A DNA stretch of 56,587 nucleotides, counting the filler, from Dugesia japonica (lineage: Eukaryota), in the NCBI GenBank assembly GCA_001938525.1. It is 6 parts of 6 records of this genome, joined end to end, with 100 filler letters (N's around TTAATTAATTAA, not from the genome) between each part and the next. Parts side by side here need not be neighbours in the genome. Positions count along the whole stretch, not along the records: positions 8,806 to 18,978 come from MQRL01640155.1; 5 more parts are not named here. One strand, written 5' to 3'. A program made the translations under genes and the position numbers. How positions within the stretch are numbered: position 1 is the first letter of the stretch; each line of letters starts with the position of its first letter. Shown in pieces: positions 16,621 to 17,033 of this stretch. The notes below the pieces were generated by a model. It ran no database searches. It had not been told where the DNA came from and saw nothing but the letters and a program-made list of their open reading frames with translations.

Positions 16621-16944
16621 TTTCCTTAGACTGGAAAGTGTGTATAGAAATTAAATGACCAAAGAAATGGCATTTTAGAACATAAATATCGTAAAATAAT
16701 TTTAAATCCANTTTGTTATCCATCGGAATCTATATTCTTAAATNATGTTAGAAACAGGTTCATTCTAAACANCATGTTTTCATTAAAGTTATATTATNCA
16801 TAAACATATTGTTTGAATGATTATATTTTACAATTACAATTATTGCGAGAATAATTGTTGGACCACAGTAACCATTGATCGTTTTTCAGAATTCATTTAA
16901 AATAAAAGCTTCGATCAAAATTTGTTTTCTTGGTTTTTGATAAT

Positions 16945-16979
16945 AATTCTATATTTCGACTTTGTCTTCGTCAGGAATT
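16945..16979 (-). ncRNA. Minimal hammerhead ribozyme in a short dispersed repeat
   Basis: Reverse complement reads AATTC-CTGACGA-A-GAC(AAA)GTC-GAAA-TA-TA-GAATT: intact core, 5-bp stem I, 3-bp stem II, loopless palindromic stem III, AUA site. Confidence 0.75.
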
Positions 16980-17033
16980 CACTTTTCAAATGAGAATATT
17001 ATTAGTATTTGTATATTATTTAGAAATACCTAC

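Follow-up and report, generated by a model that had tools for sequence, protein, structure and literature searches.

A 161-bp dispersed repeat of Dugesia japonica with a minimal hammerhead motif and its likeness to the terminal repeats of Penelope-like elements

A dispersed repeat of about 161 bp in the Dugesia japonica genome carries a minimal hammerhead motif, and the evidence leans slightly toward the view that it is a solo pseudo-LTR (pLTR, or leader) of a Penelope-like element (PLE) family, written by the RT-endonuclease of that family from uncleaved RNA. The repeat would work like a PLE terminal repeat and is a candidate member of a PLE family. It is of a known kind and, as far as the literature searched shows, a new family. 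The window, i.e., the whole stretch of 56,587 nucleotides that was analysed, consists of six scaffolds of an AT-rich eukaryote with a G+C content of about 25%, joined by N-linkers at 8706, 18979, 28068, 38203 and 47425, and contains animal-type gene exons (MFS_1, DHC_N1 and Helicase_C_2 in Pfam).

Extent, abundance and copies of the repeat

The features of the repeat and its surroundings are as follows.

16826-16986, minus: full repeat unit of about 161 bp with hammerhead, A-rich linker, conserved tail motif and 3' hairpin (run-contig depth, loose ends)
16945-16979, minus: minimal type I hammerhead, 35 nt (sequence, folding, descriptor and the Fig. S3 consensus in PMC4209133)
16979-16975 with 16949-16945, minus: stem I; C3 at 16974; extra A at 16967
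16966-16964 with 16960-16958, minus: stem II; G12 at 16957
16954-16951, minus: stem III, loop-less and palindromic; position 17 at 16950
16889-16920, minus: conserved tail motif, near whose 3' edge the remaining four window copies stop
16836-16858, minus: 3'-terminal 9-bp hairpin, inside an extension of about 63 nt found only in this window copy
16826-16896, minus: possible first 22 or so codons of a partner PLE ORF, with ATG at 16896 (reading frames; weak)
8590-8640, minus: inverted copy, 5'-truncated; consists of linker and tail and runs out in an (ATT)n tract
8640-8705, plus: direct copy that has lost the front of its core at the inversion junction and runs into the scaffold end (nhmmer E 0.013)
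28561-28627, plus: copy of which linker and tail can be read, the core falling within a 50-N gap
31662-31769, minus: decayed copy that has lost C3, G10.1 and stem I, with the AAUU form of stem III (nhmmer E 0.0065)
45395-45485, minus: strongly decayed, weakly supported copy (no nhmmer match at E 10)
3337-5112, plus: broken element of Penelope type, with an RT and GIY-YIG-like remnant, bounded on each side by (TA)n
15935-16171 and 16636-16872; 21482-21885 and 22018-22421: direct duplicates, 98% identical, beside 50-N gaps

The unit had been predicted to span about 100 bp (16889-16980), and it actually measures about 161 bp, reaching about 63 nt further 3', to 16824-16826. Contigs from 4 of 24 sequencing runs (three of organism A and one of organism B) were placed on 16800-17100 at 80% likeness, a threshold that favours conserved parts. 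Depth is high between about 16826 and 16986 and drops almost to nil on either side; summed contig depth, which is no measure of copy number and was not taken for one, is 0.2-2.4 million inside the unit in the three organism-A runs, as against 0-51 in the flanks beyond 16998. The contigs on the unit number 27,243, 36,524 and 14,161 in the organism-A runs and 2,162 in the organism-B run. Loose contig ends pile up at 16824-16826 and 16986. Those at 16824-16826 amount to at least 951 in run X1 and at least 1,089 in run X3 among 24 listed of 868 loose-end places, and since they carry long unrelated flanks, they suggest that insertion sites number at least in the many hundreds. In all four runs, contig pieces join 16824-16830 to the hammerhead, indicating that the 63-nt extension with its hairpin belongs to the unit. 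Run X11, labelled as a second organism, also contains this family, with a comparable set of variants, a much lower depth and the flanks uncovered, as could arise from a related species or from admixture.

The original prediction of an abundant dispersed family agrees with the thousands of contigs on the unit in four DNA runs, and its description as a solo repeat or a non-autonomous element fits the sharp ends of the unit. Five copies can be aligned in the window, and they lie on four of the six N-linked scaffolds, the separate segments that had been named. This corresponds to 5 copies per 55,157 called bases in a window that may be enriched. The tail 18-mer at 16903-16920 has four matches with up to two mismatches (8603, 16903, 28592 and 31678), whereas none occurs in 100 shuffles, and six with up to three mismatches (adding 45412 and 46907) against a chance mean of 0.42; the match at 46907 may be due to chance. 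The tail recurs at the sites first named, except that 8590-8705, read as one tail, is instead a head-to-head inverted pair. The direct copy of this pair keeps stem II pairing through a G-U change and has C at position 17. The copy near 45400 is weak by the tail 18-mer alone, yet aligns over about 90 nt. The core is intact in one of the five window copies, that at 16889, and one of the other four cores is the one hidden in the gap. No ORF of at least 100 aa overlaps any window copy, in agreement with the claim that no ORF is attached. The window copies have two 3' ends, four being short and one long with the extension of about 63 nt, a difference that brings to mind the optional tail of PLEs and that the neighbouring Penelope also displays.

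Two further candidates were set aside. The stretch at 16124-16171 repeats the 3' end and lies inside a 237-bp, 98% duplicate adjoining an assembly gap, and was not counted; the 98% identical duplicates beside 50-N gaps are likely to be assembly overlaps. The stretch at 13772-13876 has an nhmmer E of 0.49 and no core upstream.

The 3' hairpin (16836-16858) folds with a z of -1.42, and 14 of 200 shuffles fold as well, so the signal is weak. Its region is a candidate for an optional tail and for the start region of reverse transcription. The frame from the ATG at 16896 closes after 18 codons in this copy. Four nucleotides near 16864 are missing from 92-94% of depth, the insertion being private to this copy, and because their absence shifts the frame, the frame is open to the 3' end in the majority variant. 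This open frame is not hydrophobic, unlike most of the PLE N-termini compared, and the ATG at 16896 is a weak candidate for an ORF start.

The window also holds a second dispersed repeat family, 75-92% alike and lacking a hammerhead (10495-10681, 12927-13197, 18287-18500, 18853-18978 and 17622-17679), with a GC-rich palindrome in one part of it. An uninterrupted GH25 lysozyme ORF of 213 aa (48141-48782, plus; Pfam E 3.6e-41) has mostly bacterial neighbours in the Atlas and shares its scaffold with an intron-split helicase; on sequence, gene transfer is a possible origin. Tandem cysteine-rich coding units at 24974-25762, 77-82% alike, have no Pfam match at 1e-3 and in our view resemble Ly6/three-finger domains. 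ORF remnants at 495-923, 22962-23282, 27383-27895, 35970-36275, 40476-40820, 41541-42047 and 54370-54723 are presumably pieces of transposases or of LTR-retrotransposon integrase or pol.

The hammerhead motif and its variation

The minus strand reads AATTC-CTGACGA-A-GAC(AAA)GTC-GAAA-TATA-GAATT from 16979 to 16945, so that the complete minimal hammerhead core is present with the sequence originally claimed. From hammerhead geometry, we take the cleavage site to be 16949-16950 on the minus strand, 3' of position 17 (AUA in this copy). Stem I (5 bp) and stem II (3 bp) are returned by unconstrained folding, and the free fold is no better than that of shuffled sequences (z 0.14 and 0.24). A minimal-hammerhead descriptor finds three sites in the window (16974 minus, 5005 plus and 3401 minus, the latter two belonging to the Penelope at 3337-5112), as compared with a mean of 0.05 matches in 100 block-wise dinucleotide-shuffled windows, 0 of which contain a strict match. 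A scan of the window with Rfam up to E 5 gave no hammerhead family match, which is taken as a limit of the Rfam models and not as counter-evidence.

The traits of PLE minimal hammerheads found here are the CUGANGA core, GAAA and stems I and II; the extra residue lying between 9 and 10.1 is A at 16967, and the G10.1-C11.1 pair is G16966-C16958. Positions 15.1-16.1 are palindromic, reading AUAU, or AAUU in 14-19% of depth, and position 17 is not G. The motif at 16979-16945 matches the published consensus in every trait listed in the available part of PMC4209133, where metazoan PLE hammerheads share with it CUGANGA, the extra nucleotide between 9 and 10.1, G10.1-C11.1, GAAA, a palindromic loop-less stem III and a short stem I. 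They also form large families of mostly single, dispersed motifs with opposite-strand pairs, as does the repeat, which is unlike them in having no linked ORF in the window. The Schmidtea mediterranea example in Fig. S3 of that paper likewise has U-A-U-A after GAAA and otherwise differs in sequence. The 3-bp stem II with its 3-nt loop is at the low end of that figure, where the stem of C. briggsae has 3 bp and a loop of 5 nt. According to the same excerpts (Cervera and De la Pena 2014), a genome carries thousands of these motifs, most of them single, and their activity is low even in dimeric form. Small dimer-cleaving hammerheads were described by Lunse et al. 2017, as cited in PMC6765202.

As the original prediction held, stem III has no loop and can form only between two molecules, as in PLE-type minimal hammerheads. 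The predicted energy is -2.0 kcal/mol for the monomer and 0.0 kcal/mol for the strand-swapped dimer, and that of the stem III duplex is -0.4 kcal/mol, compared with -6.0 kcal/mol for the neighbouring Penelope. The folding stability predicted for this hammerhead is marginal.

Variation among contigs was listed at a 5% cut-off. Positions 15.2 and 16.2 shift together, at 18.8/18.9, 19.0/18.9, 18.5/18.5 and 14.3/13.5% in the four runs, and this double change converts AUAU to AAUU with the palindrome kept; the copy at 31665 carries AAUU. At position 17, C accounts for 30-34% of depth and U for 3-10%, G being unlisted at this cut-off. G12, at a CpG site, is the only other core or stem II position that varies by at least 5% (5-7%), and one stem I position varies at 7% in one run. 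CpG transitions at 16912-16913 and 16957 make up about 5-7% of depth, other CpGs of the unit being unlisted. The 24-nt linker has eight variable sites, and the expectation that the core is better conserved than its flanks holds against this adjacent linker and fails against the tail and the 3' hairpin, which are equally conserved. The covariation of 15.2 and 16.2 together with the low core variation may be read as selection in source elements; it may also be that the double change is a single event marking one subfamily, its haplotype having been seen only at 31665.

The neighbouring Penelope, the ends of the repeat and competing explanations

The broken Penelope at 3337-5112 serves as an in-window model for the same architecture and is not the parent of the 161-bp repeat. 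It has its own hammerhead at 5001-5041 with an ACAUGU stem III, and at its 5' end an inverted 68-bp copy (3337-3404). This copy begins 3 nt ahead of C3 and, at its 3' end, lacks 43 nt that are present in the terminal repeat. The repeat and this Penelope share a 9-mer in their tails, from which kinship was considered and rejected, because 677 of 1000 shuffles align as well; the distinctness that had been proposed is thus upheld. The broken RT, with X at the stop, has 452 relatives, the best being 47-53% identical, and an alignment of 15 RTs from the best 120 of these was used to collect 80 metagenome PLE loci. The same descriptor matches 28 of the 80 loci with 33 matches, all of which have the extra nucleotide and 23 of which have a loop-less stem III; their stem II is 4-8 bp, so that the repeat has a shorter stem II than any of these 33. 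In the 21 loci measured, the hammerhead follows the ORF match at a distance of 121-972 nt, and in several loci the sequence after the hammerhead reads into the ORF N-terminus. The repeats around these hammerheads extend 54-141 nt downstream and 3-257 nt upstream of C3. Locus L036 has direct hammerhead-headed repeats at 4736-4887 and 5126-5277, starting 10 nt before C3, with unrelated DNA between them. A U3-A8 core variant, known from PLEs (PMC4209133, in part), is present in L004, L014, L019, L020, L023, L027, L030, L048, L071, L078 and L080.

The repeat has no RT-GIY-YIG ORF linked to it within the window and no homologue by nhmmer among the 80 PLE loci (best E 1.5), and pattern scans gave 0 matches, both for the core in contigs from viruses and metagenomes and for the 3' part in genomes of prokaryotes. 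The lack of a linked RT-GIY-YIG ORF in the window and the 80 loci counts against the pLTR interpretation, as does the extension of about 63 nt, which is longer than the 30-40 bp tail given in the available literature. On the other hand, the arrangement of the repeat resembles that of EN+ Penelope elements, for which the accessible sections of PMC3846280 and PMC8557442 report solo pLTRs, optional tails and pLTRs inverted head-to-head, the head-to-head inverted pair being the most frequent PLE arrangement (PMC3846280). Such a 5'-truncated inverted copy is present at 8590-8705, and 9 of 15 listed joints (80 in all) change strand; the other six listed skip a part. The pLTRs of Adineta vaga Penelope (PMC3846280, as excerpted) similarly combine a unit of about 200 bp, an inverted 5'-truncated copy and solo copies; an optional 3' extension and the inclusion of the first ORF codons would be further likenesses. 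They differ in that the solo units of the repeat are extremely numerous, in that its extension is about 63 nt as against about 31 nt, and in that it has no target-site duplication longer than 5 nt, the longest exact flank repeat at the one copy examined. The flanks are AT-rich, as is the genome, the 8590 copy ends in (ATT)n, and no poly(A) is present at the repeat. A SINE derived from tRNA, 5S or 7SL was rejected on the absence of Rfam and ARAGORN matches and of poly(A), and on a flank repeat of at most 5 nt in one copy.

The main rival to the solo pLTR is a self-standing non-autonomous PLE, SINE-like in kind, in which an ORF-less unit of 160 nt is transcribed on its own and depends on a PLE enzyme for copying in trans. 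This is somewhat unlikely, though to be taken seriously. The ends are sharp on both sides, abundance is very high, variants occur at a subfamily level of 14-34%, and the inversion junction 16921 to 16986 has a depth of 219-442 in 2-3 contigs, i.e., it is common to many copies; moreover, cis-acting pLTRs suffice for trans mobilisation (PMC3846280, in part) and non-autonomous PLEs are on record (PMC8557442, in part). The unit, however, has no evident promoter, no tRNA or Rfam match and only about 12 nt upstream of the core. The copies might alternatively be randomly 5'-truncated PLE 3' ends, the apparent unit being the part that this copy happened to keep. Depth indeed declines from 3' to 5' (1.6, 1.0 and 0.67 million in X1), PLE insertions are mostly 5'-truncated according to the accessible part of PMC8557442, 121-972 nt lie between the ORF match and the hammerhead beyond it in 21 PLE loci, as noted above, and PMC4209133, in the portion at hand, interprets its single motifs in this way. 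Random truncation would nevertheless spread the joints, whereas eight of the nine listed strand-change joints run from varied inner points (16900, 16905, 16921, 16928, 16930, 16937 and 16953) to 16986-16991. In addition, the loose ends at 16986 (258 contigs in X1, 368 in X3 and 145 in X4) have no common upstream sequence (agreement 0.44-0.47), so random truncation is improbable. The copy at 8640, which begins inside the core, is a counter-case to a fixed 5' end, and contigs were placed on a single-copy reference, on which junctions further upstream are invisible.

A non-LTR retrozyme, whose tandem units self-cleave, circularise and re-insert, is the least probable of these alternatives and very unlikely. 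The unit size is inside the retrozyme range (PMC7229834, as excerpted), a few joints go back from 16984-16986 to 16840-16940, and a pLTR origin of retrozymes has been proposed (bioRxiv 10.64898/2026.07.22.740005, in part). The repeat further resembles non-LTR retrozymes, as portrayed in the available parts of these two sources, in its short non-coding AT-rich unit, type I hammerhead, PLE relationship and many monomers; 1 of 9 Xenopus retrozyme dimers was cleaved, according to the excerpted preprint. Against this, a head-to-tail array is present in 0 of 5 window copies, the hammerhead is minimal and not canonical (3-bp stem II, no loop 3), the unit ends lie off the cleavage site, and the go-back joints have a depth of 18-323 as against hundreds of thousands for the unit. 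The accessible text of both sources (Cervera and De la Pena 2020; Li et al. 2026) defines retrozymes by a tandem arrangement, by hammerheads that are mostly canonical and by circular RNA. With no head-to-tail array among the five window copies and a minimal hammerhead, the repeat falls outside the published definition of a retrozyme, and the original label "retrozyme-like" is not supported.

A possible route to solo pLTRs

The solo pLTR interpretation draws on the Poseidon PLE of Anolis carolinensis (PAc; Frangieh et al. 2024, PMC11167929), which, in the part of the paper at hand, starts reverse transcription internally at two sites in a stem-loop about 85-92 nt past the cut, uses uncleaved RNA as template, prefers ATT targets, and has a hammerhead that cleaves only with protein. 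The repeat would share with PAc a hammerhead near the RNA 5' end, two internal starts, AT-rich (ATT) targets and an uncleaved template, all in vitro for PAc and inferred for the repeat, and would differ in its start sites, about 60 and 124 nt past the cut. In all four runs, depth is higher upstream of the predicted cut (16954-16964) than downstream (16943-16953), and 16949-16950 is absent from the 24 listed loose-end places (of 868), giving no sign of copies that start at the cut. These observations suggest that the copies mostly include the core, as expected from an uncleaved template (PMC11167929, as excerpted). Linker divergence could hide some copies that start at the cut.

The parent transcript would start about 12 nt upstream of the core, near 16986, as the pile-ups of ends suggest. 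By analogy with the part of the Poseidon work at hand (PMC11167929), the PLE protein may nick AT-rich DNA and begin reverse transcription at an internal point of the RNA, near 16889 or near 16826. If primed within the first pLTR, synthesis would run off the RNA 5' end after 100-160 nt, leaving a short copy without an ORF, and a second priming may often add the 5'-truncated inverted copy seen head-to-head in the DNA. The inserted copies would then decay, the hammerhead being selected only in source elements, where cleavage is predicted to be intermolecular, in dimers, and probably protein-aided, solo copies having no partner in cis. The two cores of an inverted pair cannot pair in cis because they are on opposite strands. 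Most copies would not cleave, given the marginal energies, the absence of a cis partner and the opposite orientation of inverted pairs. The self-cleavage named in the original prediction is not supported by these features, nor by the four of five window copies in which the core is not intact.

A more far-reaching version of the solo pLTR interpretation is tentative and, taken as a whole, doubtful. It holds both that the thousands of copies are run-off, "strong-stop"-like cDNAs of the first 100-160 nt of uncleaved Penelope RNA, with the transcription start and the two priming sites used in vivo marked by the ends of these cDNAs, and that the 35-nt motif, with its 3-bp stem II and 4-bp all-A-U intermolecular stem III, is among the smallest natural hammerheads under selection and active only with a PLE protein as chaperone. 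The literature searched describes the general class and contains no account of the 161-bp family or of fixed-end solo pLTRs; Lunse et al. 2017 may list the family or smaller motifs. No literature linking Penelope, strong-stop and pLTR was found.

Minimal hammerheads in thousands of scattered copies are a published trait of PLEs in animals, and in this respect the family itself is ordinary. The very small hammerhead sets a lower size limit for assay. For the role of the PLE hammerhead and the rebuilding of pLTRs the repeat is a useful test case, and a high-copy, sharp-ended family that keeps the core upstream of the cut would support internal priming on uncleaved RNA in vivo.
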